Assembly: GCA_973895155.1 (NCBI GenBank)
Contig: OZ316893.1
Span: 3,058,430 to 3,122,429 of the forward strand
DNA from: Marsupella aquatica
Lineage: Eukaryota; Plantae; Marchantiophyta
DNA length: 64,000 bases
Direction of reading: 5' to 3'
Of the stretch, positions 3,689-56,592 are shown piece after piece. Positions within the stretch are counted from its first letter, which is position 1. The number at the start of each line of letters is the position of its first letter. Below the pieces are notes generated by a model. It saw nothing but the letters and a program-made list of their open reading frames with translations, searched no databases and was not told where the DNA came from. The translations under genes were made by a program, and so were the position numbers.

Positions 3689-6600
3689 GCTTCCTATTTC
3701 GAACCTTACTACCATGTACTCAAGGGTTTGCAGCTACAGGAGATGGAAAATATGCCCTTCTCTCGATATCTGCTTCACTTGGAACGCAGGGCAAGCGTAC
3801 CATCATATTTGCACCAACGTCTCTTCGGAAGGGGAGGAAATGAAAAGGATCTGCTGGAATCCAAGATTCACGAATGCATTGATGCCATGGGGGTTAAAAT
3901 AGTAACCGATTTGATGCTTGATGGAATGGCAACCCGGGAGCAGAGGCGGAGTTTGTTCTTGATAGATCGACCGCACAGCAGGTCAATGGACACACTAATT
4001 GTACAATAATGGCTGACTGAGATCGATCCTCACTTGGCTCAGCACTTCGTAACAATTGATCGAGACGACTATTTGTCAGTGGACTGGTTTGAAACTGCAA
4101 CTAGATGGTCTGCTGAGAAGCCGTTGAGGGGTCGAATGAAGCTCCTGCCGAAATCCGAGGCTCACGAAGACAGGGAGTGGATGCAAGTACGGCGACAAGG
4201 ACATCCAGGTCCCTGGCAAGATGCCGGGCTTCAACACTATCCGGATGACATCTCTTCAACAATTGGAACTCATTGAGCCGGACGAGGATCCCGATGATGA
4301 TGGGAATGGTCGGAGGCTTGACATTCGTGAAGGGCAGCCAATCGATGGTGTAGACTTTGCAGATGGAGTTCCCATCGAAGATGCGGTTCGCTTGGCTCCG
4401 GATATATGGCAACTGACTCTCCCGCAACGAATGATGTTGCATGACTATTGGCTGGAGGAGAAAAGGAAGCTCCACGTACAGGAGTTGAGTATTCTGATCG
4501 AGAGACAAATACGAGGAGGCGTGCAAGGGCGTCAACGAAGTAGACAATGAGATCAAACTTTCCCTGTTGCGGAACGCGAAGGTCGTTGGGATGACCACAG
4601 CAGCAGCTGCCAAGAACCACGATGTGCTGAAGTCCTTGAAGCTTGAGATTGTCATTGTCGAGGAAGCAGCAGAAGTTCTTGAGGCCATATTTTGGCTTGC
4701 ATCAGCCCGTCTGTTAAGCACTTGATATTGATTGGCGACCATTTGCAGCTACAACCATCAGTGTAAGTCTACAAGCTAGGCACAAAGAACAAATTAGAGG
4801 TGTCTATGTTCGAACGTCTCGTCAGGAGTGGCAGAATGAGACCCAACATCTCGAAATTGGTGAGAAGTCTTTATCCTGGATCGCGAGATCACTAGTCAGT
4901 AGCTGAGTATGGAGACGTATCAGGAATGAAATCGAATGTCTTCTTCTTTGATCACAAGGCAGAGGAGGATGACAGTGGGACTGCTGGAAGCAAAGTCAAT
5001 TCTACAGAGGGTAAGCTTGTTGTGGAGCTCTGTTAATTTGTACCTCTTGAATCAAGGTTGCTATAAACCAGAGAACATTGCCATACTTTCCATGTACGCG
5101 GGTCAGTTGGAAGAAATTAAGGGGCTTCTTCAACCAAAGATTCTCAGCAGGTTTTGTGTCAATGCACTTGGAGCTGAGCAGCCGTGCCAAGATCCAGGAG
5201 CAGCAGAAATCAACCGTCTTCCTCGTGTCAGCAGCGTAGATGACTATCAAGGTGAAGAAAGCGATATCATAATCTTGTCACTGGTGCGAAGCAATTCCAC
5301 TGTCACCAAGGACGGAGTAGGGAAGATAGGATTTTTGAATGTTTCCAATAGGATATGTGTGGCCTTAAGGAGGGCCAGAGAAGGTTTGTTCATCGATCTC
5401 GGGGTTCATCTTCAGGAACGCTGATCTCCTAGCCGAAAAAAGCCAAATGTGGAATGACGTGACAACCAGCATGCAGAACAGTGGAGAGCTTGGTTCAGAG
5501 CTGGAATTGTATTGCCAGAACCACCCTGAGACCATAACGAGGATTTCAACAGCGGAGGATCTCAAGCACGTGGAAGATGGAGGTTGCAGTTTGACTTGCG
5601 ACTTTCAATTCGCTTGTGGGCATGCGTGTCCCAGGCGCTGCCATCCCGGATCCCACGATCTGATCTTATGTCCTAAGCCTTGCACGATGAGTGTAGTCAC
5701 TCATGCAGACTTCGATGCTATGGATCATCCGAAGATTGCCCTCCTTGCAAAGTAATTGTCACAAAGAAGATGCTACACTGAGCATGAGCAAGGAGTGGAA
5801 TACCTCACGGACGAAGTATGCCGCAGTTTCTGTGGAAAGAATCTCCAATGCGGCCACATGTGTGAAATGATGCGCGGAAGGCCATGCATGCACAGAATTA
5901 TGTAACGAGAAAGTACTGAAAGTTCTGCCATGTGGGCACGTACTCCATCAGGATGGCGTGTCACCAAGACCCAACGACCTTCTCCTGTGACAAGCCATGT
6001 GAAGCATTTCTCCCAGAATGCCAGCACCAATGTCAAGGGAGTTGCGGGAAGTGTAAACGAGGCGAAGTTCACATCCCATGCAAGCAAAAATGTGGCCGCA
6101 TCCTTCCATGTGGTCATCCTTGCGAATCTGGGTGCTCTCTAAGCTGTCCTCCATGTCGGAAAAAATGCCAGAAGAGGTGTTTCCACAGCCGGTGCTCGCA
6201 ACCATGTGGAAATTTATGTACACCTTGTCGGGAACCATGCTCATGGCAGTGCCAGCATCACAAGTGCGAGAAAATGTGTTACGAAATCTGCACCAGACTC
6301 CGGTGCAACCGTCCGTGTCCTAAATTTGTTCCCAAGTGTGGTCATCGCTGTATCGGACTGTGTGGGGAACGGTGTCCCAAGAAATGCCGAGTTTGTCATC
6401 CCAAGACTCTGGACATCATAACGAGAATGACTCTCGAAGAGTACCAAGCATCTGATAGGTTTGTCCAACTTCAAGACTGTGGTCATATTTTCGAGTTTAG
6501 CGGCCTTGACACTTGGATGGAGGCCAATGAATCGGCTCAGGTCGACGGCTCTGTGGCTATCAAATTGAAGGAATGGTACGTACATTTTGCTTTGCCTTGG

Positions 6601-7640
6601 GATCTATCGTGTATCACCTTCCCTGGAAAATGCTTCGTGAATTAATTGAATGTTGAACGTAAGAGTTCCTCGATTCTCTACGAGCAATTGGCAATTGACC
6701 TCCCTAGCCTGTGCAATCATATGCACACCGTATGCACATATTAAATGACGTCCCAAATTATTTTCCTTGGAATCGTCCCAAATTATTTTGCAGCCCCGAG
6801 TGCAGAACTTTAGTTTGGAGAACGCACAGGTACTCCAACGTGGTAAAACCTAATCATTGTCAAGTGGAGGCTGTGAAGGAGAAGATGCTTGGACACGACC
6901 TTGCGAGAAAGGGCGTATCACATGCATGGGAGCAATATATGCTTTCCACCAAGCATTGCAGCAGAACCCCGACTTGATGGAAGCTCTACTCGGAATTGGG
7001 AGTGCATTCTTCCCAGAAGGTGAATATGAGAGGGCAATCACTCACCTAAGTCTGCTAGTTGAGTGGAGCTCATTTGCATCTTCTCTAGTAAAGCACATCG
7101 AAAGTGCTCGTGCACTAGGCAATGCTTACAGCCTCCTTAAGAAGCACTACCGTAAGCCATCACGCAGAGCTGATGATTCGATTGCGATTCAAGCGGTGGT
7201 GCCATGGGCGTCAGCTCTTACGCTAAGGAAAGAATTTACCAGCGCGGTAGAACTCTGCGACGCACTACTGGGGGGAGATCCTCACAACGGGCTGGCAAAA
7301 GAGATCAGGGAGAGGTGCAGCTTGTGGTGCAAGCCATGGCAGCGGACGTAGGAGGGCGAGGACATTGGTATACTTGTCCCAATGGTCATTTATACACCAT
7401 TGGGGAGTGTGGAGGAGCCATGCAACTTTCAAAGTGCCCTGACTGCAAGCAGATGTGGGAGGGGAACAGCATCGACTCACAGCAGACAACAAGTACTCCA
7501 ACATTAACGGATCTGAGAGAGCTGCGTGGCCTGGCAATGGAACCTACTCGAAATTGGACGATCGACGTGTCACGTTTATGTTTGTGACAAGGTACACCTC
7601 GTGGACAAAATGCACATCAAGCATAATCGGACGCGCTTGA
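3689..7640 (+). pseudogene. ZNFX1: ZNFX1-like SF1 (UPF1-like) RNA helicase with NF-X1 zinc fingers, TPR segment and C-terminal RZ finger; 5'-truncated, multiple stops/frameshifts
   Basis: Motifs spread across frames: FEPYYHVLKGLQ, VVGMTTAAAA, IVIVEEAAEVLE, LIGDHLQLQP, SMFERL, RMRPNIS, VSSVDDYQGEESDIIILSLVRSN, NRICVALRRAREGLF; Cys-rich NF-X1 repeats 5580-6400; FVQLQDCGHIF; GT-AG intron ~6576-6793; GHWYTCPNGHLYTIGECGGAMQLSKCPDC (RZ finger). In-frame stops e.g. ~4764 and ~4892; Walker A not found. Confidence 0.9.
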
Positions 7641-9076: not shown

Positions 9077-9475
9077 CTAAAAAGCCGAACCTATCCAGGT
9101 AACACAATCAGGTAAGCCATTGCAATTGCAATTGTACTGGCATTCGGTGGTCCCAAAACTGTTGCTGAAGCCTGGACGCGCGAAATTCACGGTTTCTGAT
9201 ATATAACCGTCTGCATCAGGCTCACCAAAATCAAGAGATACAGAATAACCGGACGACCCACAGTCCATCTGAAGTGTGCTACCTGCCCCACTCCACGCCA
9301 CGGCTGAAAGAGTGCACACACCTATCAGGGAATTGTCATCCACTTGCGCATCAAAGAGTGTAGGGAAGCTACTGTAAGCGGTAGAGTAGATACTCGCTGT
9401 GCAGTTGGCAGTCCCCACAAAATAGAGGAGGAGCACAGAGCCATAGGCCCAGAGGGCAAAACCCGAAACGGCCAT
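9077..9475 (-). CDS. Small secreted Cys-containing protein (132 aa), unknown family
   Basis: Intronless ORF with gccATGG context, hydrophobic signal-peptide-like N-terminus, 7 Cys, and a TATA-like TATATAA ~160 bp upstream. A decayed paralogue at 22330-22579 conserves its motifs. Confidence 0.75.
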   Translation of the reverse strand: MAVSGFALWAYGSVLLLYFVGTANCTASIYSTAYSSFPTLFDAQVDDNSLIGVCTLSAVAWSGAGSTLQMDCGSSGYSVSLDFGEPDADGYISETVNFARPGFSNSFGTTECQYNCNCNGLPDCVTWIGSAF

Positions 9476-10641
9476 GGCAGACTCAAGCGCTCGCTGTTGG
9501 AAAAGCGAAATGATGCAGACTAGTAAAAGCAGTGCATCGCGGTGGAGAAGCAGCAGCGAGCATCAAAATCTAGGGTACAATGGGAGTCAGGAATGATAAC
9601 TTACTATTCATGAACATACAGCTCCTTATAGTTATATATCGTCCGCCCTTGAATATGTGATCCACCTTGCCACCGACAAACCTATGCAGCGCCTCCGTTT
9701 GTCCCAAAGTGAGGCCGGGTTATCCACGGATATTCGCTACCACTGTAGAGGATATTCGTGCCCACCAAATGCCTTCACGAAAATCTTAACAGAGTTTTCG
9801 TCCTTCCCAAAAGGATACATGGATAACTGGTTCTCTGTAGTTATTGCACAAGTACTCCATCTTTGATCACAAGAAGGTCACGGAAACATAAGGTCCGCTG
9901 AATATGCGAACGGAGATGCCTTCCCACTGAGCCTCCCCATGAACTCAAAATCTAGACTACATCAATTCTTACAGGTTCCCAGACTACATGTTAAACTCTC
10001 AGTGGAATTTGTTGAATCAGACATATCTTCCGATGAATATTCTTCATGTGGTGGAAGATCTGAGCTTCGTAAACAACGTGGATGGAAGCGCTGAGGCGCA
10101 ACAATGATGTCACAAGTTCTTGACAGCTGTGTCAATTCTAAACACTTGACAACAGTTTGTCTTTGAGCAACTCGGGATTTTACGGTAAAACGACAACCAT
10201 AGGTTCGGCCATTATCTCTCGTACGATCGGAAAAGATCCCGAACGTACTCCAATGTACGTTAAACGAAAAAGCGACAAGTCATCGCTAAGATACCAAGTA
10301 TTACTTTGGCAGCAACAAAGCAGGAGACATGACTAAACCCTCGTTAGGCAACGAAAGAACAGAGGGAGAGAACACGGTCTCGTCGTTTGGGAAAGAAAGA
10401 ACACAGATAGAGAAGAGTACCGTCCCGTGTTTGAAAATCCTTTCAGTAAGACTTAAGAAGACTAGAAAAACTAAAAGAAATACAGAGTTCCATGACTGGA
10501 GACCGTTTGGTCACAAAGGAATGCAAATTTCCTCGTAACAAGTATGTATCAGGATGGCCGTTACTGTGTCGACCTATGTGTGCAATATATATCAGATGGA
10601 GTTGACTGGTGTTGGCAGCTGTGAAACTTAGCATATATACA

Positions 10642-10944
10642 TGTTGGAATTTGTCAGTCCTGTCCGTTGCTGACTCCCTTTGGCTCATTGTCGGGAGTTG
10701 TTACTCTACTGGCTGTCTCGGACTCGCTGCCGTAGTCGGTAGGCAGTCTTCCCTAGATCCGTTTCGGGATCAGTCTGACTGCGCCACACTTAGCACAGTC
10801 CTAACCATAATTAGTTAGTCTGATCCCGGGATTATCCCTGTCGGCTGCTTGCCGCTGGCGCCTACTTGCGCCCTCACTTAAGCTGTATATAATGAGCCTC
10901 AGCGCTCCCGATTAATTAAGTTTCACACATTGAAAACTTCCACA
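10642..10944 (+). repeat. 5' LTR of copia element
   Basis: TGTTGGAA...TTCCACA; TATA-like TGTATATAAT at ~10884. Confidence 0.97.
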
Positions 10945-10956
10945 TGGTATCAGAGC
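10945..10956 (+). promoter_or_regulatory. Primer binding site (tRNA-iMet)
   Basis: TGGTATCAGAGC immediately after the 5' LTR. Confidence 0.95.
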
Positions 10957-11007: not shown

Positions 11008-14000
11008 ATGGCTTCAGGCGACGCAACCAAGCTCTCTTTCTCAGATAGCGACAAGTTAACTGGGGCACACAATTACATTGTGTGGTCCTTTTATGTTGAG
11101 CAAATTCTGAGAGAAAGAGACCTCTGGGAGATTGTCGACCCCACCACGAATACACCTACTCCAACAGCTGGAGGAAGTAACGCTGCCCAGCAGCATACTC
11201 CCTCACAAGCACAAAGCGCAGCATCAGCATCTTCTGAAGGAGGCGATGCTCAGCAGCGACCTGCAGCTACCAGTGGACCCGCAGCAGGTGCATCAAAGAG
11301 CCTGGCTGACGTCCAGAAGCAGAAGGACAGGGTAATCATTATACTTACCAAGACCGTCCATTCTTCTATTATTCCTATCGTTCGAAGGCTTAGTAAGGAT
11401 CCTGCCAAGCTGTGGGCTATCCTTAAGCAAAAGTTTGAGTCATCAGCACTCCAGCAAAAGTTGGATCTCAAGTCCGCTCTTGCTGAAGCTCGCATGAGTG
11501 AGGGGTCCTCAGTGGAGGCCTACCTCAAGAAGATCGAGTACCACGTAATGCAACTAGGCAGCATAGGAGAGGAAATAGACGACAAGGAACTCATTCATAT
11601 TGTGCTAAAAAAATTGCCTGCAAGTTGGTCTGCGTTCAAATCAGTCTATAGTGTCATGTATGCCAAGGATCCTCTAGCCACTTTTGCAGATCTGGAGGAG
11701 TATTTACAGGCTGAAGAATTCAGTCGTAAACCACACAACGAAGCTGATGAGCAATCTCTGCTTGCCCTCACTTACCCAAAACGTGGAGAGGGAAGTAGAG
11801 GTCATCGTGGACGCGGAAGGGGACGTCATGACCGAGGAAGACCTCATAGAGCATATGATGGTGGCCCAGATCGACGAAACTGCAACTTCTGTGGGAAGCG
11901 AGGCCACTGGGAAGCTGACTGCTTCATTAAAACGGCTGACACAGAGATCAAGACGATGTCTGTGTCTCAGTTGAAGGACCTGCACTCGAAAATCAAAGAC
12001 ATCAAAGCCACTCCTGCATCCAAGGCGTACTTTGCTGAGGGGGACATTGGAGACAACAACTCTGAGTTTGGTGAATCCAGTGATCCCAAATCTTCACTCA
12101 CTATTGAAGCAATGCTCAGTGAACTTGATGCCAACAGCACTGAAGACAAGACCTGGATTCTTGACAGTGGAGCCTCAGCTCACATTAGTCGAGACAATAG
12201 TGGTTTTGTGAATCTTACTGGAGGCGCCTCTACCTCCACTGTCCTGACGGCCAATGGCTCTAAAATGCCAGTCACAGGATCTGGATGTATTCCACTTTCA
12301 GGAAATAAATCTATTCGAGATGTTTTGTATGTACCGTCTATTGCTAGGAATTTACTCTCCGTTGGCAAGTTCACTGATCAAGGCCACTCCGTGCTGTTCA
12401 ATTCATCTAGCTGCTATATATTTGATCCAAATAGACCATCACAGCCCTACCTCAAGGGCTATAGAGATCCTCGTAGCAAGCTATACAAGGTGAAGTTGCC
12501 AGACCGTCCTCCCGGGAGAAATCTAGCTAAGACTACGCTGCTGCACCCCAAGCTATCTTCTCAATGTCACCTGGCCGAATCACGACTATCTCAAACAGAG
12601 CTCTGGCATCAACGTTTGGGACACTCTAGTCATCAACGTATAAGCTACATGATCCGGAAGGAGTTAATCACGGGAGCTCCATCTTCACTCCCTACCCCTG
12701 ACCAACTATGCGAGACTTGCATAAAAGGGAAGCAATCTCGTCATCGCATACCTAAGCTTGCAACATCTCGTGCAACTAAAACTCTGGAATTAATCCACTC
12801 TGACCTCTGTGGTCCCTTACCGGTTGCCTCTCTCTCTGGAGCAAGGTACATAATGACATTCACTGATGACTTCTCTCGACACTCATGGGTCTACTTTCTT
12901 AGAACCAAAGACGAAGCCTTAAACAAATTCAAAATCTTCAAGCAAGAAGTCGAGACCTCTCTCGGCGCAAAAATCATGTGTCTACGCAGCGACAGAGGGG
13001 GAGAGTATATGTCAGATTTATTCAGATCATTTTGTCAGCAGCAAGGCATACACAGGCAACTCACCGTAGCAGGAACCCCTCATCAGAATGGGGTAGCAGA
13101 ACGTAAAAACCGGACCCTTCTTAATATCGTACGTAGCTTGTCAATTGGCTCGAACTTTCCAGCCTACCTATGGGAAGAATTGGTCAACACAGCCAATTAC
13201 ATCAACAACAGATGTAGCACACGAGCCTTGAATCTCTCTACCCCCACTGAATGTCTCACGGGTATCAAACCAGACGTCAGTCACTTTCGTATTATAGGAA
13301 GTACAGCACATGTCCACATACCCAAAGAAATGCGCAACAAGCTCCAGCCAAAATCAATCCGAACTGTGCTTATAGGCTACGACAACAATAGCAAGGCATA
13401 TCGCTGCTTCGATCCAGAATCACGTAAAATCCTCATTTCTCGGGATGTGATCTTTGATGAGTCCACTCAAGGGGATTTCTCAACAACTCAAGTTCATCAA
13501 CAAGAAAGCATACTCGACTTGTTCCCGTTTGATGACAACTCTGATAGTGAGCCAGTCACTGCAAATCAGGTTCCAGTTGTTGACTCAACTACTCCTGAAA
13601 TGGACCCGCCAACCTCAGACTCCATCGACAATTTACCAATGGAGCAGGCAGCTGAGATTCCTGACTCTTCATCAAACTTCACCGATACTCCAACGGCTGT
13701 TCCTGAACCACGCCAAGTCCGAAGAGCACGTCAACGGGCATCACAACGAGCTCTCCAACGAACACGATCACCATCTGGTAGGATGACGTCGCACCCCTAT
13801 TGGCTTTCTGATTTTACAGCATACATCTCAGAAACCACCGAGCAGCTCTTCCTGGCCCTACTTGCTGAATCTATCGACAATATCTCAGTCAATGATGCTC
13901 TCTCCGACTCGCGCTGGGTCAGTGCTATGCAACTCGAAATGGATGCACATCGCAAAAATGGCACCTGGGAACTTGTCAATCTCCCTCCCGGAGAGAAAGT

Positions 14001-15489
14001 GCTTTCAGCCAGGTGGGTGCTTAGAGAAAAACTTGACCAAGAAGGAAATGTCAAGTTCAAGGCCCGGGTAGTCGCCAGGGGGAATGAGCAACGTGAGGGA
14101 TTGGACTACGAAGAAACCTTTGCTCCCGTAGTCAAGTGGTCTACAGTCAGGCTGATAGTAGCACTTGCAGCGTCTCTTGGTTGGCCCTTATCACACATGG
14201 ATGTAGTGACGGCATTTCTCAACGGCACTCTTAGAGAAACAATCTACATGATGCAACCCCCAGGGTTTCTGACCCCAGGCCAAGAAAAGCTGGTATGTAG
14301 ACTCAGAAAATCCATTTATGGGCTCAAGCAAAGCCCTCGAGCATGGTATGAAGAAGTGGACTCCTTCCTTCGCTCAATTGGGTGCAAACGTAGCTCCCTT
14401 GATCCCAATCTGTATACTATGCATAGGGATGGAAAAATTGCAATCATTCTGCTCTTTGTTGATGATCTTCTACTCACTGGTAGTGGAATAGATCTCATAA
14501 CTGAACTAAAGGAGCAGCTGAAAGCAAAGTACGAAATGAAAGATCTAGGAGCAGCAAAGAGATATTTGGGCATTGATTTTCTTGCTACAGAAACAGGGAT
14601 ACTACTGCATCAGAAGCACTACTCAGATCAACTCGTTCTTGACTATGGTATGGATAAATGTAAGCCTGTAGCCACCCCGTTACCAGAAGGCCTTGAGCTC
14701 TCTGCGGAGACCAACACTCAAGACATCGACTCCACGGATTACAGTCAACTTGTTGGGAAACTCATATATCTCACTAACACGCGTCCGGACATTTCATTTT
14801 CAGTTGGATTAGTGAGCAGATTTATGAGTCAACCACAACAAGCTCACCTTGATGCTGCCATGCACATTGTTCGCTATGTCAGTGGAACATCTGATCTGGG
14901 AGTATTCTACGCCAAGGATAGTCCACTTGACTTAGAAGGATTCACTGATTCTGATTGGGGAAATTCCTGTCCCGACACGAGAAGGTCAACTGGCGGATAC
15001 ATATTCAAGCTCTCCGAAGGTCCTGTCACCTGGAGTAGCAAAAGGCAACCAACGGTGTCCCGGTCCACCACAGAAGCAGAATACAAAGCACTCTCGGATG
15101 GTGCCCAAGAAGGAGTCTATCTTAAACGGCTACTCGAAGAACTGCAAAGTAATGACTCTCCTCCAAGCAAAGTCCATTGCAAGAACAGCGACGTCACAAC
15201 AGACCTGGTGAACGCAACCCCGACACTTCAAGACTTACACTTAAATTGTGATAACATGAGCGCTGTTAAGCTTGCAAAAAATCCAGTGTTCCATGCCCGA
15301 AAGAAACATTTGGAAATACATCACCACTTTGTAAGAGAACGAGTACTCGAAGGGGAACTTTCTATACATCACGTCAAATCTGAAGATCAAGTAGCTGACA
15401 TCTTGACAAAGTCACTGTCGAAGATAAAGTTCATTAGAAACCGAGATGTATTAGGAATGCGATCAGTAACCCAACTACAGTCAGGATGA
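11008..15489 (+). CDS. Copia gag-pol polyprotein (gag, CCHC, protease, integrase, RT, RNase H), 1493 aa
   Basis: CNFCGKRGHWEADC, WILDSGAS, LWHQRLGH, HSDLCGP, RSDRGGEY, QNGVAERKNR, MDVVTAFLNG, LFVDDLLL, FTDSDW, TEAEY, KHLEIHHHFVRE in copia order. Confidence 0.98.
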   Translation: MASGDATKLSFSDSDKLTGAHNYIVWSFYVEQILRERDLWEIVDPTTNTPTPTAGGSNAAQQHTPSQAQSAASASSEGGDAQQRPAATSGPAAGASKSLADVQKQKDRVIIILTKTVHSSIIPIVRRLSKDPAKLWAILKQKFESSALQQKLDLKSALAEARMSEGSSVEAYLKKIEYHVMQLGSIGEEIDDKELIHIVLKKLPASWSAFKSVYSVMYAKDPLATFADLEEYLQAEEFSRKPHNEADEQSLLALTYPKRGEGSRGHRGRGRGRHDRGRPHRAYDGGPDRRNCNFCGKRGHWEADCFIKTADTEIKTMSVSQLKDLHSKIKDIKATPASKAYFAEGDIGDNNSEFGESSDPKSSLTIEAMLSELDANSTEDKTWILDSGASAHISRDNSGFVNLTGGASTSTVLTANGSKMPVTGSGCIPLSGNKSIRDVLYVPSIARNLLSVGKFTDQGHSVLFNSSSCYIFDPNRPSQPYLKGYRDPRSKLYKVKLPDRPPGRNLAKTTLLHPKLSSQCHLAESRLSQTELWHQRLGHSSHQRISYMIRKELITGAPSSLPTPDQLCETCIKGKQSRHRIPKLATSRATKTLELIHSDLCGPLPVASLSGARYIMTFTDDFSRHSWVYFLRTKDEALNKFKIFKQEVETSLGAKIMCLRSDRGGEYMSDLFRSFCQQQGIHRQLTVAGTPHQNGVAERKNRTLLNIVRSLSIGSNFPAYLWEELVNTANYINNRCSTRALNLSTPTECLTGIKPDVSHFRIIGSTAHVHIPKEMRNKLQPKSIRTVLIGYDNNSKAYRCFDPESRKILISRDVIFDESTQGDFSTTQVHQQESILDLFPFDDNSDSEPVTANQVPVVDSTTPEMDPPTSDSIDNLPMEQAAEIPDSSSNFTDTPTAVPEPRQVRRARQRASQRALQRTRSPSGRMTSHPYWLSDFTAYISETTEQLFLALLAESIDNISVNDALSDSRWVSAMQLEMDAHRKNGTWELVNLPPGEKVLSARWVLREKLDQEGNVKFKARVVARGNEQREGLDYEETFAPVVKWSTVRLIVALAASLGWPLSHMDVVTAFLNGTLRETIYMMQPPGFLTPGQEKLVCRLRKSIYGLKQSPRAWYEEVDSFLRSIGCKRSSLDPNLYTMHRDGKIAIILLFVDDLLLTGSGIDLITELKEQLKAKYEMKDLGAAKRYLGIDFLATETGILLHQKHYSDQLVLDYGMDKCKPVATPLPEGLELSAETNTQDIDSTDYSQLVGKLIYLTNTRPDISFSVGLVSRFMSQPQQAHLDAAMHIVRYVSGTSDLGVFYAKDSPLDLEGFTDSDWGNSCPDTRRSTGGYIFKLSEGPVTWSSKRQPTVSRSTTEAEYKALSDGAQEGVYLKRLLEELQSNDSPPSKVHCKNSDVTTDLVNATPTLQDLHLNCDNMSAVKLAKNPVFHARKKHLEIHHHFVRERVLEGELSIHHVKSEDQVADILTKSLSKIKFIRNRDVLGMRSVTQLQSG

Positions 15490-16037
15490 TTGACACCCAT
15501 AGAGTAAATTCTCCTCATTAAGGCCACTGACATTGCTCTATTTAGCCTAGTCTCAATTTCTAGCGCTCTAGCTTGCTCCTTCGCTAGATACAATTCTGCC
15601 TCGCTATGAGTCTTGAACGACTTATACTTGTTGCCTCGGAAGCCGCTCACTAATGGCTCTGCCTCCTCCCAAGTAGTGTAGATCCCCGGGCGTCGACCTC
15701 GTGCCACAGCATAATATCTTCTGGTCAACTCCTTCGAGAAATCTTGAGCTCCGTCTTCTGTTGGCAGGCATTCAGGATCTCCCTTGCATACAGGAGCGCT
15801 TGGCTCTAATGAATGCATCATCTCTCCAGCTGCCTCAATCTCTATCGAAGTGCCAGCAAGTGACACCGATGTCTCTGGATCCCCAACAGGGGGAGTCGTC
15901 TCTTCTGCTCGGGGTGTGCTGCCATAACTACATACCAAATAGTCGTAAGCACTCCGGGAAAGCGCCGATATGAACTCCAACAGGGAAAGAACCAAATGCA
16001 TCACTGATTCCTTTAACGTTGCCTCCTCGTGTGCCAT
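15387..16037 (-). CDS. Antisense accessory ORF of the copia element with an RNase H1 N-terminal / caulimovirus P6 (viroplasmin) hybrid/dsRNA-binding domain, 216 aa
   Basis: RRYYAVARGRRPGIYTTWEEAEPLVSGFRGNKYKSFKTHSEAELYL fits the YAVxxGxxxGIYxxWxxxxxxVxGFxxxxYKxFxxxxEA consensus. gccATGG start; TATATA at 16071-16076. Confidence 0.8.
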   Translation of the reverse strand: MAHEEATLKESVMHLVLSLLEFISALSRSAYDYLVCSYGSTPRAEETTPPVGDPETSVSLAGTSIEIEAAGEMMHSLEPSAPVCKGDPECLPTEDGAQDFSKELTRRYYAVARGRRPGIYTTWEEAEPLVSGFRGNKYKSFKTHSEAELYLAKEQARALEIETRLNRAMSVALMRRIYSMGVNHPDCSWVTDRIPNTSRFLMNFIFDSDFVKMSAT

Positions 16038-16170
16038 GGCTGTCCGAACTCTGGGTGCACTTATGTCATGTATATACTTAGATCAAGTCGACTCATAAGG
16101 CTGCGTCACTTCTCTCTCTCTCTCACAGCTAAATTTATGTCGACCTTGGTGGTCACAGCGAGCCACGGTC

Positions 16171-16179
16171 GAGAGGGGG
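16171..16179 (+). promoter_or_regulatory. Polypurine tract
   Basis: GAGAGGGGG directly before the 3' LTR. Confidence 0.9.
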
Positions 16180-16482
16180 TGTTGGATTTTGTCAGTCCTG
16201 TCCGTTGCTGACTCCCTTTGGCTCATTGTCGGGAGTTGTTACTCTACTGGCTGTCTCGGACTCGCTGCCGTAGTTGGTAGGCAGTCTTCCCTAGATCCGT
16301 TTCGGGATCAGTCTGACTGCGCCACACTTAGCACAGTCCTAACCATAATTAGTTAGTCTGATCCCGGGATTATCCCTGTCGGCTGCTTGCCGCTGGCGCC
16401 TACTTGCGCCCTCACTTAAGCTGTATATAATGAGCCTCAGCGCTCCCGATTAATTAAGTTTCACACATTGAAAACTTCCACA
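16180..16482 (+). repeat. 3' LTR of copia element
   Basis: Near-identical to 10642-10944. Confidence 0.97.
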
Positions 16483-16487
16483 ATACA

Positions 16488-22329: not shown

Positions 22330-22579
22330 ATAAGATCCTATACTCTTTCAGCAGTGCCGTGGCATGGGGGACGAACCACACTGTACGTGGATGGACTGTG
22401 GGTCTTCGTGGTATTCTGTGTCTCTTTATTTTCGTACGGCTGATGACTACGGTGCTATGGTAACAGAAGTGATTATTTCGCGCCCATGCTTCAGCCACGA
22501 TTTCAGTGTCGACGAATGCGTGAACAATTGAGCTTGAGGCTTACCCGGTTGCGTCACCTGGTCAGCTTCGGTTTGGTAG
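22330..22579 (+). pseudogene. Decayed paralogue of the 9077-9475 secreted protein (5'-truncated)
   Basis: YTLSAVPWHGGRTTL / MDCGSSWYSVSLYFRTADDYG..ISRPCFSHDFSVDECVNN*A*GLPGCVTWSASVW* aligns with CTLSAVAWSGAGSTLQMDCGSSGYSVSLDF...ARPGFSNSFGTTECQYNCNCNGLPDCVTWIGSAF; frameshift and stops. Confidence 0.85.
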
Positions 22580-23111
22580 GAGCATTCCACGTGAGGATGG
22601 TAGTCACTGTATTCTCTGTGTGCAAGAGATGCAGTCGGATCGACGGTGTGGGCAGCTGTGAAACTCAGGATATACAGATGCTCGAACAGAAGATATCGTA
22701 CGTTGAAGTGTGTCTGAGCTAGCTAGATAGATATGTTAGACCACAAGGCGATCATACTATGGGTTGGATATAGCTAGATGTGTGGCTGCTACACTTTAGG
22801 CAGAAACACTTGCGCATGAGATATCTAAACCTAGAACCGGACTTCAAGCGGGAATTCAAGTTTTCATGTTGGGCAGGACCCGAAAATGTTATAGATTGGA
22901 GAAGATTGTCGACGTAGACATGAGGACCCGGTGAGCGACTGATAATCAGTGTAGGGTGCTCAGCCAATTTTTTGTATCTTTTTACCGAATAACAAAACGG
23001 GATATAATTTTTTTCTCGGAGAACAATGTTGACGTCGTCTGTTGCTACTATCCACAATGCAGGACTCTGAGTTCCACGTTCTACACTACGATTCCATGCT
23101 ATCCATTACAC

Positions 23112-23675
23112 CAGGCCCGTGACCAAAGGGGGTTTGGTCACAAAAGCTCGTGACCAAAGGGGTTTGGTCACAAAATGACCAAAGGGGGTTTGTCACAAAA
23201 GCCTAGTTACTTTCTATATATGTTATGATCACATGTTCATAGTCACCAACTAGTGAGTATTATACACTTCCCTTTTATATCCATCCCCTTCATTTACCTT
23301 AAGTGTTTCCAAAAATAAAATATAAATTCTCAGTATGATTGTTTCGAAAGAAAAACATAAGTAGGTAACCTTTTTCCCAATGAAGAAACAAAAAGGATTC
23401 AATAACAATAAATATTCTCTAGAAAGAAACAAAACATTAAATGCTCTCTCATCTCCTTTTGTCTCATGCTGCTATAGTATATGTACACATGTACAATACT
23501 ATGGGGAAAATACTTTATTCTTCTCAATGATAAAGTCATCATGCCAAGAAATGAGGTCTAGTTACAAAAGACAAAGTATAGCAAACCAATGTATTGGAAC
23601 CAAAGTATTGGGAACAAAGTATTGGAACCAAACCAAATATTTTGGGGCCATTTTTGGGCCCCCATCACATCTCAG
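23112..23675. mobile_element. Inserted segment, probable hAT-like TE end fragment with repeated hairpins
   Basis: Absent from the paralogous region near 16878. Starts CAGGCCCG, then 3x GTGACCAAA-G4/5-TTTGGTCAC; 14-bp TATTGGAACCAAAG repeats at ~23592-23640. Second TIR/TSD not found. Confidence 0.45.
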
Positions 23676-24289
23676 CCAATAATAAGATGTAAGTCAGAGT
23701 AATTCAAAACTATCTACAGTTTGACGGTGTTGAAGAAATTGCTTTCTCAAAAAGTTGTAATGGTATCCTCGGAAACTTCGATTATGTAATGCTGTCAAAG
23801 CTAGTAGTTTCTTCTAAAACCATTCCAGACATATCCGTAGCACTGAGTGAGACTTCTTGCACGTTAGTCTAACTGAGACAAGGATTCAGATCTGGGAGGC
23901 TAGGATACTGAGATTTGGCAACGGTCTTCTAGTTCTGCCCATGGAACAGCAGGGATTGTGCATGGATTGTGCAGTCTTCAGATCTAGACGGTTGTGTAGA
24001 TCTAGACGGCCACCCCTTCCTTCCCCTTTGCCGGCCAGATACTGGCTCCCTCAAGTGTCATAAAAGGAGTGAGTCAGCCCGGGTTAGGGTAGAACCTGGG
24101 GTGGAACCAGCTGGGGTTTTCTGTGGCCAATAGCGCCTTGCCACATGGCAGGCAACCCAGGCAGAATGACCTTGGGTTCAGTATAGGTGGTAGAGTAACC
24201 GGGAGAGAAACCCATATTTGAAAAGGGACTCTACTTAGTAATTAAAATAGTTTGGGGGATACGTTGATAATTATGGTCAGTTTGCATGG

Positions 24290-35902: not shown

Positions 35903-38900
35903 AATGTGCGACCCTCTCAAAATATGTTACCGCGGAGATTAGAGCAGCATATCGGGAAATGGGTATGCCGGAAGAAGGACAAGGCTCTGAGTCACATTCC
36001 TCATCAAGTGACAGTGGAAGCAACAACCCTGATCGCAATGTACCAAGAACATATGAACAGGTTATTGATGACCAAGATAGAGCCATGGATGATTTTATGG
36101 TTGATTGGTTTGGTGTTGACGTCCCTGGTGATGATGCTGAGGTGTCTGCTGATCAAGGAGGTCATGTGCCCCCCAATGATCCACGACCAAGACACACCCC
36201 CGAGGGACAGCGCCAATGGGAGGAAGCAGAGGAACATGCCCGAACTCCTATCTATGAGGGTGCTCGTTTGAGTCATCTTTCTGCTATCTTGGGGTTGATG
36301 AATCTATAGGCCAAACACAAGGCAAGCAATGCCTTGTTATCTGATATGTTTGCACTTTGCCATGACCTTATGTTACCTTCTGGCAATGTGTTGCCAGGAA
36401 CTTGGAAGGAGGCCAAGCGTGTTCTCTCATCAATTGGCATGGAATATCATATCATTCATGCATGTGTGAATGATTGCATGTTATTTCATGGGGCCGATGA
36501 GAAGAAGACACAGTGTACTGAATGTCATGAGCCACGGTATGACCCCAACATGATTACAAAGAAGGTGCCAAGAAAAGCTGTTCGTTGGTTTCCCATCATT
36601 CCTCGGTTGTTGCACATGTACAGGTGTTCTGATTTGGCAGAGTTGATGGTATGGCATAAGACTCATCGATCAGGGCCTGGTGTTATGCGGTTGCCAATTG
36701 ACTCTCCTGCAGTCAAACTATTGAGGAAACATGGCCAGACTTTGCACATGATCCTCGTCATGTGAGGTTGGGATTGGCATCTGATGGGGTTAGTCCTCAT
36801 GCCCTTGGAGGCAAGGGAAGACCTACATCAGTTTGGCCTGTGGTTGTGATGAATTACAACCTTCCACCATGGCTATCCATGAAGAAGGGGTTCCTCTTGC
36901 TGTCTTTGATTATTCTAGGTCCAAAAAAGGTGAAGAACTTTGACACTTATTTGGCACTATTGATTGGAGAACTCCAAAAACTGTGGGGTGGAGTGTGGGC
37001 ATATGATGGCAGGAAAAATACAGGAGGCATTCCACGTGTATTTAAATTGAGAGGGGTAGTTTGTTGGACAATGCATGACTATCCTGGTAAGATGACTTTT
37101 TGACCATATGCCACCCTTCTTTGATATGCTCTTTAATATACTTGTTTGTCATGTGACAACCCTAACATTTAGTCTGGTTTTATTTTTGGTGTAACCAGGG
37201 TTTGGCTTTGTCTCTGGATTGCAAACTCAAGGGTACAAAGCTTGCTCCACCTGTGGTCCACAATTGCAAGATATGGCAATTTGGTCCCCATGGCTTAGGA
37301 AGATTGTTTACATTGGGCATACAAAGTTTCTTCCGATGGGGCATGAGATGAGGTCTGACCCACTTTTATTTTCCTCCTTTGACATGCCCCTTGGTGATAT
37401 GCGGGAAATTCCGGAACCAACAACTTTTGGGCATTGGAAGTCACTAGCTGATAGGGTGGCAGACCCTGATGATCCCCTCACCTTTGATGGTATTGGGTTG
37501 ACGAGGTGGAGTATACTAGCCAGTTTGCCCTATTGGTCAGAGTTGAAGATCCGCCATCTTTTAGACCCCATGCACATAGAGGGAAATGTGGGGAAGGCGT
37601 TGATAGCTCATTTTTATGGGGAGAAGGACACTAACTTCAGGGAGGCATGTGAAGAGTTGGAAATGCATCCAGATGTATGGGTACAAGTTGATCCTGCCAC
37701 AGGTTTGGAACATCGTCTTTCTGCTCCTTGGGTGCTTAGTGTTGGCCAAAGACGTGAATTCCGGAATCGTATAGGGGAGATGCGGTTTCCTACAGGCTAT
37801 GGTGCCAATTTGAGGAAAGCTTTTGGGATGGAGGACAATCACAAATGGTCACGGTATCTCAAGACACATGACTATCACCGCTTATTGCAGCATATATTGC
37901 CAGTGGCAATTATAGGGTTGGGGACCAAAGAAGTGCAAGATGCCATTTGGTCATTGGGTCGTTTGTTGAGATGGATATGCTCAAATGAGATATATGTGGA
38001 AGAGATTCCTGGAATGGAGGTATTGGCTGCTGAGGTGGTTTTCAAGTTGGAGAAGGCCCTCCCTCCTTCCTTCTTTGATTGTCAGGTTCATTTGCTTGTG
38101 CATCTTGTGAGGGAGGTTGCCATTGCTGGTCCAGTTCATTGTCGATGGATGTACTGGCTTGAGCGTTACATGTCAGTCTTGAAGGCTTATGTACGTAACC
38201 GTGCACGAGTGGAGGGAAGCATAGCTACAGGATACTTGGCTGCAGAGAGCATGTTTTATTGTAGTAACATCTTGGCCACCATTGATCAGACTTTACCACG
38301 TACTTGGATGGAGGAGAGGCAAGAGGAGGAGGACCGTTTAACAGGAGCAACAAAAACACGCATGCTTACATCAACAGAGTGGACACAGTTGAATACATTC
38401 ATGTTGAGTAATAGTAATGTCATGGATGAATGGAGGGAGTTTTATGACAATGCCAAAAGAATGAGTCAAAGGGCAAGGATTTTTCCTAAGTTGCATGAGT
38501 TTATGAAGGAAAAGTTGGTTGAGTTGGATGGCATTTTGGCACAAGGAGGAGATGTCTCACAGTTTCCTACTATGACAAATGACATTCGGACCATTGTTCA
38601 TGGCCCTTTGAGAGTGGTAACATCCAAGACGGCCATGTGGACCCAAGGGAGACACTTCAGGTTTCACTAGTTCCTAACCTTGTTTTCCATATTCATGTAC
38701 TACTACTTAAGATATAGTAATCATTTTACTTAAGATAAGTGTGTTTTTCTCTTTTGGTATGAAAGGTTCCTCATAACATGATTAGTGTTTTTTGTGTAGT
38801 AGTAACAATATATGGGTCTTGTTAATTTCAGGATTTCTTCCCTTGATGAGAAGAGGGCTCGTACTTTTGATTGTGGAGTTCAAGGGCAGTTTTGTCAGGA

Positions 38901-39318
38901 CTCCCGGAGTAGCCGACATGACAGGAACATTGTTCGTGATGTTGTGCCACACTATGGGAAGATAGAGGAGATTTTGGTGGTCTCATATGACAACCAATCT
39001 AAGTTTGAGGAGTATGTCTTCAAGTGCAAGTGGTTCAAAGTGAACCTTGTTGGTAATAATCACATTGTACTCCACGATGAGAGTGGGTTTACACGGTTGA
39101 GGACAAGTGCCACTAGTTTTCAAGCATCTCATTGGCAAACGTCAGAGCCATTTACTTTCCCATCTCACTTGGAGCAATGTTTCTACATTCCATACCCCTT
39201 AAACCCAGAGTGGTCACTTGTCATCACATATGTGCCACGGTCTCGTTCCATTGTTTCAGACAAGCCAGACACTATTTTTGTGTCAGATGTAGAGGACATT
39301 GAAGGTGACCAAGTGTGA
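35903..39318 (+). pseudogene. CACTA TnpD-type transposase (Transposase_21 / DUF4218 / DUF4216-like); exons ~35903-37086, 37199-38660, 38832-39318
   Basis: IHACVNDCMLF, RLGLASDG, YNLPPWL, HDYPG, LDPMHIEGNV, KTHDYH, FFDCQVHLLVHL, GPVHCRWMYWLER, HYGKIEEI, FKCKWF. Nonsense TAG at 36307-36309 and a frameshift at ~36718. Confidence 0.93.
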
Positions 39319-49820: not shown

Positions 49821-52617
49821 ATGGAGGAACAGGGGATAGACTATTATGGACCCTCGAGCCGCAGGAGCACGAGGGGGGGACGCTTAGCTGGTGGACGAGT
49901 AGATCGGAGGACACAAGGGGAGCCTGCTGCAAGGCTTGAGGTGGGGGGGATACCCGGTGAAGCTGTGGGGCGATCACCTGCGCGGGGTGTTATGGTCAGT
50001 GGACCTGCTATTGGATTCTCTGCGCAAGATGCGCGCTCTGGGAGGAACGACCCAAATTTGGGGGAGACAACTGCGGCCAGATCTCAGTTGTATTACTTGA
50101 ATGGGAATGAGCATCCGGTGAATGGACCTGGACCTAAGGTGCAGTCGGTGAGTGGAATGGAATTGCCTCAGAACCTGCAGGAGGGGGATGGAGCAGGGGA
50201 GAAGGAAGGCGAAGCTCTGCACTGGGGGCATGGAACAATTGGAAGAGGGGCGAATGAGGTTAACCAGGATGCAATGGTGGGGAGTGAGGCCCTGGGCCCC
50301 CAGCATTATTAATAATGGGTTGGACGTGCGAACGGATGAAGGGTGCAAAAAATCTGATTTGAGATTAATTTTTATAATTGGCTTAGAAATATCAAGGGAT
50401 GGTTTTATTCAAAGAACCCTTTCTAACTAATATAGGCTTATATAAATGTTGCCCAAGTTAATATGCTTCAAGAGGTGATGTAATATGGATGTGACACGCG
50501 TCACAATAGGATTGGTCCTTGTGGCCACCCTTTATTGGAACATGTGTATATGACATATAATTATGCTTGCAATATCTATGATTCAGAGTAGTTTAGGACT
50601 TTGGAGCTTTTGAACCCTGACTACCCTGCCGTGTGGTTCAAAAATGCCCCAAAGTTGAAGTTTGGGGTTAAAGGGTCACGAACACAAAAATGTATGTACC
50701 CAAAACCCTTCCAAAACACTCCCGTCAGTTTTAGAACCGTGTGCAAATGATGAATTTATAACTTTTCAAGGCTTTCATAAATGGTGTAAAATGTGAAATT
50801 ATAATATCTCAAAGGGGCAGATTTATTCTCCAAAATTAAGTTTTTAAGAATAACAAGAGAAATTTTTATAGGCTTCCAAAAATAATAAGGGGTACTAAGG
50901 AGGGGGGTGTACGCACGTATACCTCTTTAGTTTACAAAGGCTGGGGGCCCAGGGGAGTGAGGTGCCACAAGAAAATGTGGAGATGCAGGACGCGCCCGTG
51001 GAGGATGACGAATCTGAAGAGTGTATCAAGATCCTGCGCGAGATTGCGATCAGGTCCAAAGGTGATCTTGACAAGAGACTCTTTGCAGAAGTGGAATGGA
51101 ACCTACCGGAAGCAGCTCGTAATGTGAGACAACTATATAATTGCGCTCTCATATGCTACTTCACGGGAAGAACGCCGCTCCTCAATGATTTTAGAGCATG
51201 GGTAGATGAAGTGATGACAAACCAGGAGGGATGGCCGGTACTTCAGGTTAAATTCGTAGGGAAGAACTTTTACATGATAGTGTTTGAGGATCCTAATCAC
51301 AGGGATCTGGCACTCAACTACGCACCATGGTTTATGGAGAGACGATTTATATACACGTTCCCATGGGATCCATCCTTTGATGTTAAATGTGAGAACTTCA
51401 CGAAGCTCCCAGTGTGGATTGAGATACCGTTTAGGGACCTTGCACTAGAGGGCTGCAGAAGAAAGATTGCGTGCTCTCTAGGGACTCTGCTGTACTACAT
51501 TCAGGGGAACGAATTCAGTTCGTATCCCCACGATCGGGCTTGCATCCTTTGGGACACGGACAGGGAAGTCCCTGCCAGTGTGAAGATTCGAATTCGTGAT
51601 GACATTATTATCTGGCAACCGGTGACATTTAAAAATATCCCCTATCATTGCTTTCAATGCAACCAAAGAGGTCACCTGGCCCGTGAATGTAAAGTAATCT
51701 TGGAGACTGCCGGTGCTCTACGGACGGGAGCGGACCCGCCGGACGAGAAAGATGACGAGAGACACTCTGAGGCTGATCAGGAGGAGGTGTTGAGGGCTAA
51801 AGAAAATGCTGAAGCACGTGCTATTTTTCGGGGAGCCATGGTGCCTCCTGTGCTGGAGGTACCCTTTTCAGTGGAGGAGGATATCGCTCAAGTGGAGTTG
51901 CTAATTGTTAGTCCGGTTCCTGGGGAGATGGCAGGGCGGGACTCGGGGCCGCTGCTACGGGAGAACCCGGATTTGCGGGTGGCGGCTTTCTCTTCGGGAA
52001 CCAGGGAGAGAAGTGCTGATTTTCTCCTGACGCCTGGGCGGGCTGGTTGCATGGAGGACTCACAAGACACAGAGGCTGCCAGGATTCCACTACTGGCTGT
52101 CGTTGTCACGTCAATTGGGCGATGGACTACTCAGAGAAATTCAGTGGAACAAGGAATTGAAGCCCTTACTACTCCCAATTCGCGTGATGGAAATGATGAG
52201 ACCTTCTCCTTTCACGAAGAATCTGATGCGGAGATGTCTGAATATGAAGCTTATATTTCACACAGCAAATTCAAAGCTAGAGCCCGCAAGCAAGAACTTC
52301 GCACACCGCCCTCTGAAAGGACTGAGAAGGCCAAAGGTGAGGCTAAGAAGCAAAGATCAATTAGATTCTCACGTGGTGCCATGTCTGATGCAGGAAGTGC
52401 GGACGGGATTACAATGCACAAGCGACTGCTGCTCACCATTCCTAGAGGGAGCGATTGTGATGTGAGGGTCCAGGGGAATGCTCCTTTTGGCGGTGGAGTG
52501 GCGCATATAGCATCCCCCATGCGTGTCTCTCCTGCTGGCTCTATTAATGGATATTTGAGTGGACCTATGGGTCGAGATGTGACGGGGATGTCTCCCGGGG
52601 GACGGAATAGACTATGA
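49821..52617 (+). pseudogene. L1 ORF1 (DUF4283-like + zinc knuckle), interrupted by a TIR element; ~707 aa when restored
   Basis: Removing 50290-50954 plus one TSD joins ..MVGSE|VPQENVEM.. in frame. Motifs PVWIEIP and CFQCNQRGHLAREC. Confidence 0.85.
50290..50954. mobile_element. 665-bp MITE with perfect 15-bp TIRs and 8-bp TSD
   Basis: CCCTGGGCCCCCAGC / GCTGGGGGCCCAGGG; TSD GAGTGAGG at 50282-50289 and 50955-50962; AT-rich interior. Confidence 0.93.
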
Positions 52618-52671
52618 GACGCAAGGATGGGGGGTGGCTGTGCCAGGATATAATTTTGGCATAGTAGGAGG

Positions 52672-55600: not shown

Positions 55601-56592
55601 CGGGGCCGCCTTCCCGGTGGAGCATCATGGATACCCTCAGGTGTATGGTGGGCTTCAATTCCCTTCCGAATAAAGCCCTCATAGAGATTGCTGCGATTTG
55701 TGGCAGGCTGGGATTGAGGTCTATTGGTGATAGATGGTCGACGGAGGATGGATGTTGGAAGGACCTACCGCTACGATGGCACAATATGCGTGGCTTTTCT
55801 GATGAGCATCGAACGATGGCTCGTTCGTTCTTGGAGTGCCTTTGGCGGGCAGACAATTGCCGATCTGAATACTACTTGTATGCCAAGCAGTGGAGATGGA
55901 CAGACAGACCGGAGCCGCTGAAGGACTTCAGAATCGAGAATTGTAGAGTGTATGATTTCTTAAGGCCTAAGACTGCATCCCATGACCGCCTCAATCGGAT
56001 CTGGTCACTGTTCTGGCCTGAGATGCGCTGGAATATGTGTTGGGCTAAGCTTTGGGGGTCTGATCTTCCGATTAGAGGCAAGACCTTTGTGTGGAGGATT
56101 ATTGTAGGGGGCCTTTTCACTGGGGCACGTGCGCTCAGAATGGAGGTGAGTAATGGAGATTGCAAGCTTTGCAAAGGATGGCTGGAGACGATCCCCCACG
56201 TGTTCTTCCACTGTACACATGCGGTCCGTTGCTGGCTACTCTATCAGGATTCGTTGCAGATTCTGAGCTTGCCAATGGGACGAGGTCTGATGGCTCTTTT
56301 AGAGGCGGCCTGCGGGAAGGAGCCTGTGCAAGTGGCCCGGATCTTCGTCTTGCACCATATTCTGTGGCGACTCTGGACGGGAAGGAACACTCACATGTTT
56401 CAGGTGGGGGGGAGACGGGTGTTTGACTTGGGACTTGTCCTGAATGAGGCAGCGGAGAACGCTTTTGCTGTTAGTCGGCGCTGCCCCCCGGGCAGGAAGT
56501 GCACCCGCCTGATTCGGGCAAAGGCATGGATGGATGACCTGCGTAGGGTTTGGGTAGGCAGTGGCAGCATTGCTGTCAATTCTTTTGCTTGA
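52672..56592 (+). CDS. L1 ORF2: AP endonuclease, reverse transcriptase, C-terminal zf-RVT (1306 aa, open)
   Basis: SWNVCGL, GDFN, SRLDRIY, SDHDP, PGPDG, WRPLTMLN, LDFEKAFD, GVRQGCPLSPLLF, FADD, YLGAP, CKLC..ETIPHVFFHC. Confidence 0.97.
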   Translation: MDGRLRVASWNVCGLCEPNRKHIVKNWVRSLKVPLGILALQEVKVDQFRLDMALRAILPSYQHFSSKPEEGKGGTALLVHPELRVVGSGTLDMGRAVWAVIEKGAVTFGVACIYAPNSARLRALLWNDLKVMLPHNDWVLCGDFNMTERRTDSTGTSPLIRGREAEFWRFLKMRFNLTDTWDIRGGAAGPRFTWRRNRNGEMSQSRLDRIYVSERGEWLCEVELLHDGGSALSDHDPVMLNVQLSGLIETVERGKVSLFMANPAFLRRREDILRLEAAWRVGRGDFVDPRLRFAKGSWKMRQTLKEIQAQPRTTEMEMAAQQAQLRVLKMAIIEHHSEGDIAEFMDAEDTLHASELEEAHRGRRLARIKWLSEGDESTKFFFATVRAKRSRESMPSLNREDGSTVADPGEILKEVERFCQTLYSPEPRLEAELEEVRVARDRLLGNTRFALSGAENLRMERLPSYQEVKEVLWLLPCDKTPGPDGMTAEVYRACWEFLGQDLVDMIQEFWLTGALDVGICEGIVKFIPKKPDKRFLRDWRPLTMLNTIYKLIAKILAIRLKPILHMIISPQQTGFIPGRHILENISLAWLTCDWVHNKRREALFLKLDFEKAFDRVSHDYLWECMHLLGISGRFTMLVRALLAQASSRALVNGLLSNTFELKRGVRQGCPLSPLLFVISTQPLMDFLDTEMAEGQLCGLQITPGFTICYRLFADDVGMFIPATERAFEEATTALECYEMASGARLNLKKSVVIPLALERIPEWLNNTGCLISRRGEIQKYLGAPFGESLSTEQLHKFCLDKICARLSVWSNKLLSFTGCSLLVKQVLLAIPIYHVMYCKASVGLAKKMIALSREFLWGYNATGGRKVPLVAWDRMALPRVEGGLGFRDFRSHSDALLSQWFTKALNAPETEWSRMLAANLKLMGWTNYKIIRQNGYSFQDRLLLCTPRSFSGLPYTTGLWRSWELVRAHLFFDPGRTGPPSRWSIMDTLRCMVGFNSLPNKALIEIAAICGRLGLRSIGDRWSTEDGCWKDLPLRWHNMRGFSDEHRTMARSFLECLWRADNCRSEYYLYAKQWRWTDRPEPLKDFRIENCRVYDFLRPKTASHDRLNRIWSLFWPEMRWNMCWAKLWGSDLPIRGKTFVWRIIVGGLFTGARALRMEVSNGDCKLCKGWLETIPHVFFHCTHAVRCWLLYQDSLQILSLPMGRGLMALLEAACGKEPVQVARIFVLHHILWRLWTGRNTHMFQVGGRRVFDLGLVLNEAAENAFAVSRRCPPGRKCTRLIRAKAWMDDLRRVWVGSGSIAVNSFA

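Follow-up and report, generated by a model that had tools for sequence, protein, structure and literature searches.

The liverwort Marsupella aquatica harbours a Ty1/copia retrotransposon that carries, between pol and the 3' LTR and on the strand opposite to gag-pol, an antisense gene for a small protein ending in the hybrid-binding domain of RNase H1. The gene is real, conserved and apparently undescribed, and sequence comparisons leave us with little doubt that it is under selection. Its product is predicted, with reasonable confidence, to bind RNA:DNA hybrids; whether the hybrids on which it acts are the element's own we consider close to an even question. The window, that is the whole 64,000-nt stretch of contig OZ316893.1 that was analysed, contains a complete copy of the element.

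This copy is intact and 5841 nt long. Its LTRs, delimited by comparison with each other, are 303 nt each (10642–10944 and 16180–16482, plus strand), have TG...CA ends and are flanked by identical target-site duplications, ATACA (10637–10641 and 16483–16487). Adjoining the 5' LTR is a primer-binding site (10945–10956, plus strand), which we take to be of the initiator tRNA-Met type, and adjoining the 3' LTR is a polypurine tract (16171–16179, plus strand). According to domain matches, a single intact ORF of 1493 aa (11008–15489, plus strand) encodes gag, protease, integrase, reverse transcriptase (RVT_2) and RNase H in the copia order, and its catalytic motifs were located in place. The LTRs with their TG...CA ends, the target duplication, the primer-binding site, the polypurine tract and the domain order together assign the element to Ty1/copia. 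The two LTRs differ at 2 of 303 positions, which, along with the duplication and the two priming sites, bears out the suggestion of an initial, sequence-only reading that the copy is young. Contigs from two of the four public runs (both organism B) contain the element-free junction of both flanks; the insertion is therefore polymorphic and recent. Nesting of a second element inside the copy was considered and rejected, internal repeats and duplications being absent. A small ORF is found ~1.2 kb downstream of the insertion in the window.

The spacer between pol and the 3' LTR measures 690 nt. In the window copy the antisense ORF is open from ATG to stop over 216 codons (15387–16037, minus strand) and begins in the context GCCATGG. 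A candidate TATA box, TATATA (16071–16076, minus strand), has its initial T 39 nt ahead of the ATG. Thus, the good start context and the upstream TATA noticed earlier are indeed in the sequence, the latter being weak evidence alone, as TATATA occurs ~0.06 times per 60 nt in the window. Further upstream, a (GA)7 run followed by TGACG (16104–16124, minus strand) presumably represents candidate upstream promoter elements of the antisense gene, and the RNA fold of the region upstream of the ORF is not unusual (z 0.60). A chance ORF can be rejected on the basis of the Pfam domain match described below and of spacer shuffles, only 8 of 2000 of which yielded an ATG-initiated ORF of at least 155 codons. 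A shadow ORF of pol was likewise rejected, since the overlap with pol is merely 103 bp and the domain lies outside it. The env-like ORFs of SIRE and Athila follow pol in the sense orientation, whereas the present ORF is antisense.

The 216-aa length and the 103-bp overlap with the 3' end of pol (15387–15489), both noted from the sequence alone, are present in the window copy but do not characterize the family. Nine of the 11 core proteins terminate 52–60 residues past the domain start, the exceptions being the window protein (109) and P0014 (127). Among the contigs covering position 15562, seven of eight are two letters longer than the window (1/2 in X1 and 2/2 each in X2, X3 and X4), and a stop at ~15562 is present in another minus-strand frame of the window sequence, so that the product of those longer copies would end about ten residues past the domain. 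We infer a usual product of ~140–165 aa; judged by these sequence comparisons, the 216-aa form with its pol overlap is a read-through peculiar to the window copy. The read-through tail (residues ~160–216; 15387–15560, minus strand), the last 103 bp of which are antisense to the pol end, is unconserved when contigs and family lengths are compared. Past the inferred usual end each of the five changes listed outside pol is nonsynonymous in the antisense frame, the contigs differ in length by 20–22 nt at 15527–15529, within the tail, and changes within the overlap mostly leave pol unaltered. The contig differences and the ends of the family proteins therefore led us to reject the overlap as a conserved feature, and there is no evidence in them for a designed convergent arrangement. 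An antisense mRNA, if made, would nevertheless be complementary to the full-length RNA of the element.

The presence of an RNase H1-N/P6 domain at ~15585–15725 without a catalytic RNase H, as initially proposed, was confirmed by a Pfam scan. The match to Cauli_VI (PF01693, the RNase H1 N-terminal domain) spans residues 107–150 (15588–15719, minus strand; E 3.1e-19, 69.4 bits versus a cut-off of 21), agrees with the structure model and is the sole Pfam family found in the protein at E<=0.1, no catalytic RNase H being among the matches. By sequence, the domain also matches its N-terminal counterparts in yeast and human RNase H1. Modelling of residues 1–155 with AlphaFold2 gave a helix (residues 3–38), a disordered linker (42–102) and the domain (108–154), in this order; the modelled domain has the three-strand, two-helix fold and an rmsd of 0.5–0.8 Å to human 3BSU over 45–47 residues. 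The N-terminal hydrophobic helix (15924–16031, minus strand) is conserved in the family and is delineated by the model (pLDDT 97 at residues 11–30), a leave-one-out profile and hydropathy, the maximum 19-residue hydropathy being 1.36 in the window protein and 0.71–2.08 across 11 proteins (at least 1.6 in five of the 11). The linker (residues ~42–102; 15732–15914, minus strand) is acidic, proline-rich, little conserved in the alignment and predicted to be disordered (pLDDT <50). No evident basic nuclear signal was found outside the domain. The protein thus shares domain and fold with cellular RNase H1, but has no nuclease and carries the domain C-terminally, after a hydrophobic helix and linker, which is the reverse layout.

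Residues W123, Y138, K139 and S140 of the window protein align with human W43, F58, K59 and K60. In the human domain, W43A is reported to abolish hybrid binding and K59A/K60A to weaken it about tenfold (PMC6846478). The W43 equivalent is retained in 13 of 14 candidate proteins. At the K59 position the candidates have K (7), E (4), Q (2) or R (1), where 226 of 264 other domains have K, while the K60 position is occupied by S, A or M and never by K (0/14), S being also the commonest residue elsewhere (101/264 other domains). Given a tryptophan in 13/14, K or R at the K59 position in 8/14 and no lysine at the K60 position, hybrid binding by the family is likely, possibly weak in some members. By analogy with P6, there may be members in which nucleic acid is bound poorly and the fold serves for contacts with proteins. 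The isolated human domain is described as having nanomolar affinity for hybrids, which it prefers, and as binding dsRNA weakly (PMC7888926).

Searches for homologues covered proteins of near lengths; the full 216-aa query returned six proteins and the query without the tail returned the family. Full-length homologues are 141–165 aa long, 34–43% identical where the whole query was aligned, and have the helix-linker-domain layout in common. Whole-protein homologues are P0003, P0011, P0012 (Calypogeia fissa CAM6101554.1), P0013, P0014, P0016 and P0203, the last one added by a representative search that returned mostly multi-domain repeats. Three of the 11 core members (P0004, P0021 and P0025) are without the N-terminal helix and may be truncated gene calls, and P0028, P0130/P0033 and P0063 are family-like only. 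Core members carry PF01693 alone and, having no catalytic domain in the chain, are not RNase H1 enzymes. Homology of the N-terminal helix does not depend on the domain: in the leave-one-out analysis eight of nine rows scored 27–46 bits, above 500 of 500 shuffles. P0028 did not exceed all of its shuffles (7/500), and the helix profile gave zero non-family matches among 301 proteins.

At 18 of 34 positions, the C-terminal 34 residues of P0014 agree with the opposite strand of a copia RNase H end, and do so at the same place of pol as the tail of the window ORF; the best of 2000 shuffles reached 15 and the best of 298 other proteins 13. Therefore, a member 34% identical to the window protein is also antisense to, and located behind, a copia pol. 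This position is established for three sequences, namely the window, a distant contig type (see below) and P0014, the last being the only one of the ten database homologues of the core family, the Calypogeia protein among these ten, for which genomic context is known. A scan of metagenomes recovered no copia pol match at any of the 80 kept loci (210 confirmed), and four loci that were translated encode cellular or viral-type RNase H proteins. A FastTree phylogeny of the domain (48 columns, 104 tips) grouped 11 of the 14 candidates with a support of 0.97; in the IQ-TREE analysis of 41 rows a single clade was not recovered (2 changes; 20% of bootstrap trees). The two trees do not agree on a single clade, and they identify no donor of the domain.

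Selection on the ORF is apparent from related contigs. The distant copia contig type, found in three of the four runs, has a pol ~79% identical to that of the window (187 differences in 877 nt) and a spacer that is unalignable except for 15608–15718, in the domain, where the orientation is the same and 17 of 111 nt differ. Of the 17 differences, eight were listed and, through the agreement of depth values, attributed to contigs; when read in the antisense frame seven of these eight are synonymous, versus 23–29% under neutrality (P about 0.0002–0.0009). Pooling of three contig types gave 16 listed changes in codons 105–154, 11 of them synonymous. In another contig type, a difference in length of 1 nt at 15816 and amino-acid changes in the linker (4/5) indicate that some copies have decayed. 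The proposal that the ORF is kept under coding constraint is thus upheld by the synonymous excess and by the homologues of 34–43% identity, one decayed contig type notwithstanding. Decay of that type and the read-through allele might instead suit a neutral passenger, a captured and functionless RNase H1 fragment, or self-restraint, in which the protein or the antisense RNA limits copy number; antisense RNAs can restrict elements (PMC7264820). We consider this pair of explanations very unlikely: the synonymous bias over the domain, together with a helix and stop position conserved at 34–43% identity, rules against neutrality, although it leaves self-restraint untouched.

Antisense ORFs behind pol (aORF-3R) have been described in maize Grande (gene23), rice RIRE2, Silene Retand, PvRetro13 and Botrytis Boty, with their function given as unassigned in these accounts (PMC7264820; PMC11963269; PMC4408406). 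The same examples are consistent with the earlier remark that antisense extra ORFs are best known from Ty3/gypsy elements of the Tat type (PMC7264820; PMC6317226). The liverwort gene resembles aORF-3R in position, orientation, conservation across copies and species, and a candidate promoter of its own near the 3' LTR. However, aORF-3R reside in multi-kb regions of Ty3/gypsy elements (Tat: Retand, Ogre), whereas here the element is copia and the spacer 690 nt, and where aORF-3R products match Transposase_28, plant mobile domain or SMC-like proteins, the present one is small and contains a nucleic-acid-binding domain whose structure is understood. A plant-wide survey counted ORFs of at least 250 codons only; it makes no mention of liverworts, and its table of 12 domains lacks Cauli_VI (PMC6317226). 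Surveys with such a floor and no liverworts would have missed a conserved class. Literature searches outside subscription journals yielded no report of a retrotransposon accessory gene that encodes an RNase H1 hybrid-binding domain. Antisense extra genes of LTR retrotransposons have gone for decades without an assigned function, mainly since their proteins resemble nothing tractable. The present gene belongs to a compact, intact copia element, and the domain that it encodes is one whose structure has been solved and whose ligand and knock-out residues are known, so that its activity is directly assayable.

As to the role of the protein, it is established that copia elements themselves produce RNA:DNA hybrids during reverse transcription. 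The element's own RNase H is intact and without a hybrid-binding domain, and we therefore favour, at slightly less than even likelihood, an accessory protein that serves as a tethered, non-catalytic hybrid-binding helper in the element's own cycle. The antisense gene would be transcribed from its own promoter beside the purine tract; the N-terminal hydrophobic helix might anchor the product to a membrane, a particle or a partner, and the flexible linker would tether the domain to this anchor in an adaptor layout lacking a nuclease. The domain could then hold the hybrids of reverse transcription, or hybrids at the element's own locus, either protecting them against host RNase H or handing them to the RNase H of the element. 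Counting against a helper are the replication of most copia elements in the absence of a gene of this kind and the tolerance of the young window copy for a 57-residue read-through tail.

The sequence-only reading had offered a silencing suppressor or a reverse-transcription cofactor. An accessory gene that is under purifying selection and encodes a hybrid-binding domain is supported, and the cofactor is the likelier of the two roles, while the route to suppression by way of caulimovirus P6 fails. A suppressor would coat dsRNA of the element, or hybrids of RNA-directed DNA methylation, and so keep small-RNA silencing away from the family. In P6, the domain is reported to bind hybrids and dsRNA in vitro (PMC5902531), the antisense mRNA would, by its geometry, base-pair with genomic RNA from the element (PMC7264820), and expression as a separate protein that stands alone fits a function outside the particle. 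Yet a review describes the domain as dispensable for RNAi suppression by CaMV P6 (PMC5902531), and deletions are reported to map this suppression to domain D-I (PMC3836500), the motif of which is absent from 15 of 15 proteins; the argument from CaMV P6 therefore does not hold. GW/WG Argonaute hooks are also absent in 14 of the 15 proteins, and the weak dsRNA binding reported for the isolated human domain (PMC7888926) tells against dsRNA coating. We thus regard suppression as unlikely.

Comparison with P6/TAV is instructive in other respects. Both place a nuclease-free domain on a separate gene of a plant reverse-transcribing element, and the N-terminal part of P6 has the same helix-linker-domain order. 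On the other hand, the liverwort protein is one third as long (141–165 aa in the family against ~420–540 aa for P6/TAV), antisense and devoid of further P6 domains, and the trees support no common origin. The D-I motif is missing as well (0/15 proteins); soymovirus P6 is also without it. One could suppose that the protein works like the N-terminal third of P6, self-associating or recruiting ribosomes or TOR to build cytoplasmic translation or packaging sites, with the domain serving partly as a protein-binding module. The best viral fold matches are caulimovirid transactivator/viroplasmin proteins, with several alignments covering 150–200 columns, but these long alignments have an rmsd of 17–36 Å, so that only the order of parts is shared, and the short ones comprise the domain alone. 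Self-association of the P6 N-terminal region (PMC5670102) and binding of TOR, eL13 and eL18 by its dsR domain (PMC5902531), both as reported, would fit such a protein, as would the variation of basic residues within the family. Against it, P6 proteins are mostly 420–540 aa long with further domains, the single gag-pol ORF of the element makes reinitiation unnecessary, and the domain trees identify no donor; we judge a viroplasmin-like scaffold distinctly unlikely. A related but bolder idea, which we put forward as speculative, is that a liverwort copia lineage independently evolved a mini-viroplasmin, in which a detached RNase H1 hybrid-binding domain, encoded antisense and anchored to a membrane or an oligomer, would shield reverse-transcription hybrids or R-loops from the host. 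If true, RNA:DNA hybrids would for the first time be the target of an LTR-retrotransposon accessory protein, and caulimovirus P6 would have a convergent counterpart.

The ligand could also be sought at the chromosome. A protein that links the integration complex with R-loops of the host, in the way that chromodomains provide a link to chromatin marks, would be in line with the description of the isolated domain as a sequence-independent R-loop sensor (PMC7888926), with the adaptor-like architecture of the predicted structure and with the location of the window copy ~1.2 kb upstream of the small ORF. However, the last point rests on one insertion site, no basic nuclear signal is evident outside the domain, and the hydrophobic helix better suits a membrane or oligomer role, which makes integration targeting quite improbable. 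The helper that holds the element's own hybrids is the reading we prefer, and the gene suggests that RNA:DNA hybrids are a point of conflict between retrotransposons and their hosts.

Comparable modules are carried by other mobile elements. The additional RNase H (aRH) of Tat elements is, like the present domain, an RNase H-related module acquired by an LTR retrotransposon, but it is described as catalytic, sense and inside pol (PMC4408406), whereas here a binding module only is encoded by a separate antisense gene. The capE gene of a Pleurotus Helitron is likewise transposon-borne and has a Cauli_VI domain; unlike the liverwort gene, it is reported as cargo of a fungal DNA transposon, present in one large copy, rather than part of an LTR element (PMC4289320), and a relation between the two is unsupported. 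A search of the ESM Atlas with the antisense ORF gave basidiomycete Cauli_VI proteins as best matches (0.90), which, with recognition below threshold, serve as a lead only. Other captured ORFs are carried by LTR elements of rotifers, according to PMC5408684.

Further database proteins retrieved in homologue searches with the antisense accessory ORF of the copia element (P0028, P0033/P0130 and P0063) are family-like, with a helix at the N-terminus and a single domain of the hybrid-binding type, but do not belong to the core group. They may represent a second or older lineage. The hybrid-binding domain was also found in a metagenome protein (L001:3489–3641), where it is combined in a single chain with an RNase H and a region labelled helicase-like on motifs judged by eye. 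Within the RNase H of the element's own pol, a stretch between two catalytic motifs (15144–15226, plus strand) is presumably longer than usual and does not align with the distant copia family.

Approximately 1.2 kb away from the 5' LTR of the copia element lies a minus-strand ORF (9077–9475) for a small cysteine-rich protein of 132 aa, which is predicted to be secreted and gave no match in a Pfam scan. A degenerate, stop-containing paralogue of this ORF is located on the plus strand (22391–22576), and the region 22594–23962 is similar to the flanks of the copia insertion.

Exon-like pieces matching AAA_12 (helicase) and TPR in the domain search (4930–5424 and 6854–7351, plus strand) are probably part of a host gene. 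Domain matches also identified an apparently intact plant LINE (50899–56592, plus strand), with DUF4283 and a zinc knuckle in ORF1 and endonuclease, RT and zf-RVT in ORF2. Matches to Transposase_21, DUF4218 and DUF4216 mark plus-strand remnants of a CACTA-type transposase (37195–39318). Repeat analysis of the window further uncovered two arrays of a ∼35-nt tandem unit (57425–58457 and 59666–60832), which lie together between long inverted repeats (56502–56851 and 60938–61318); the region 56502–61318 thus bounded looks like a non-autonomous foldback-type element.
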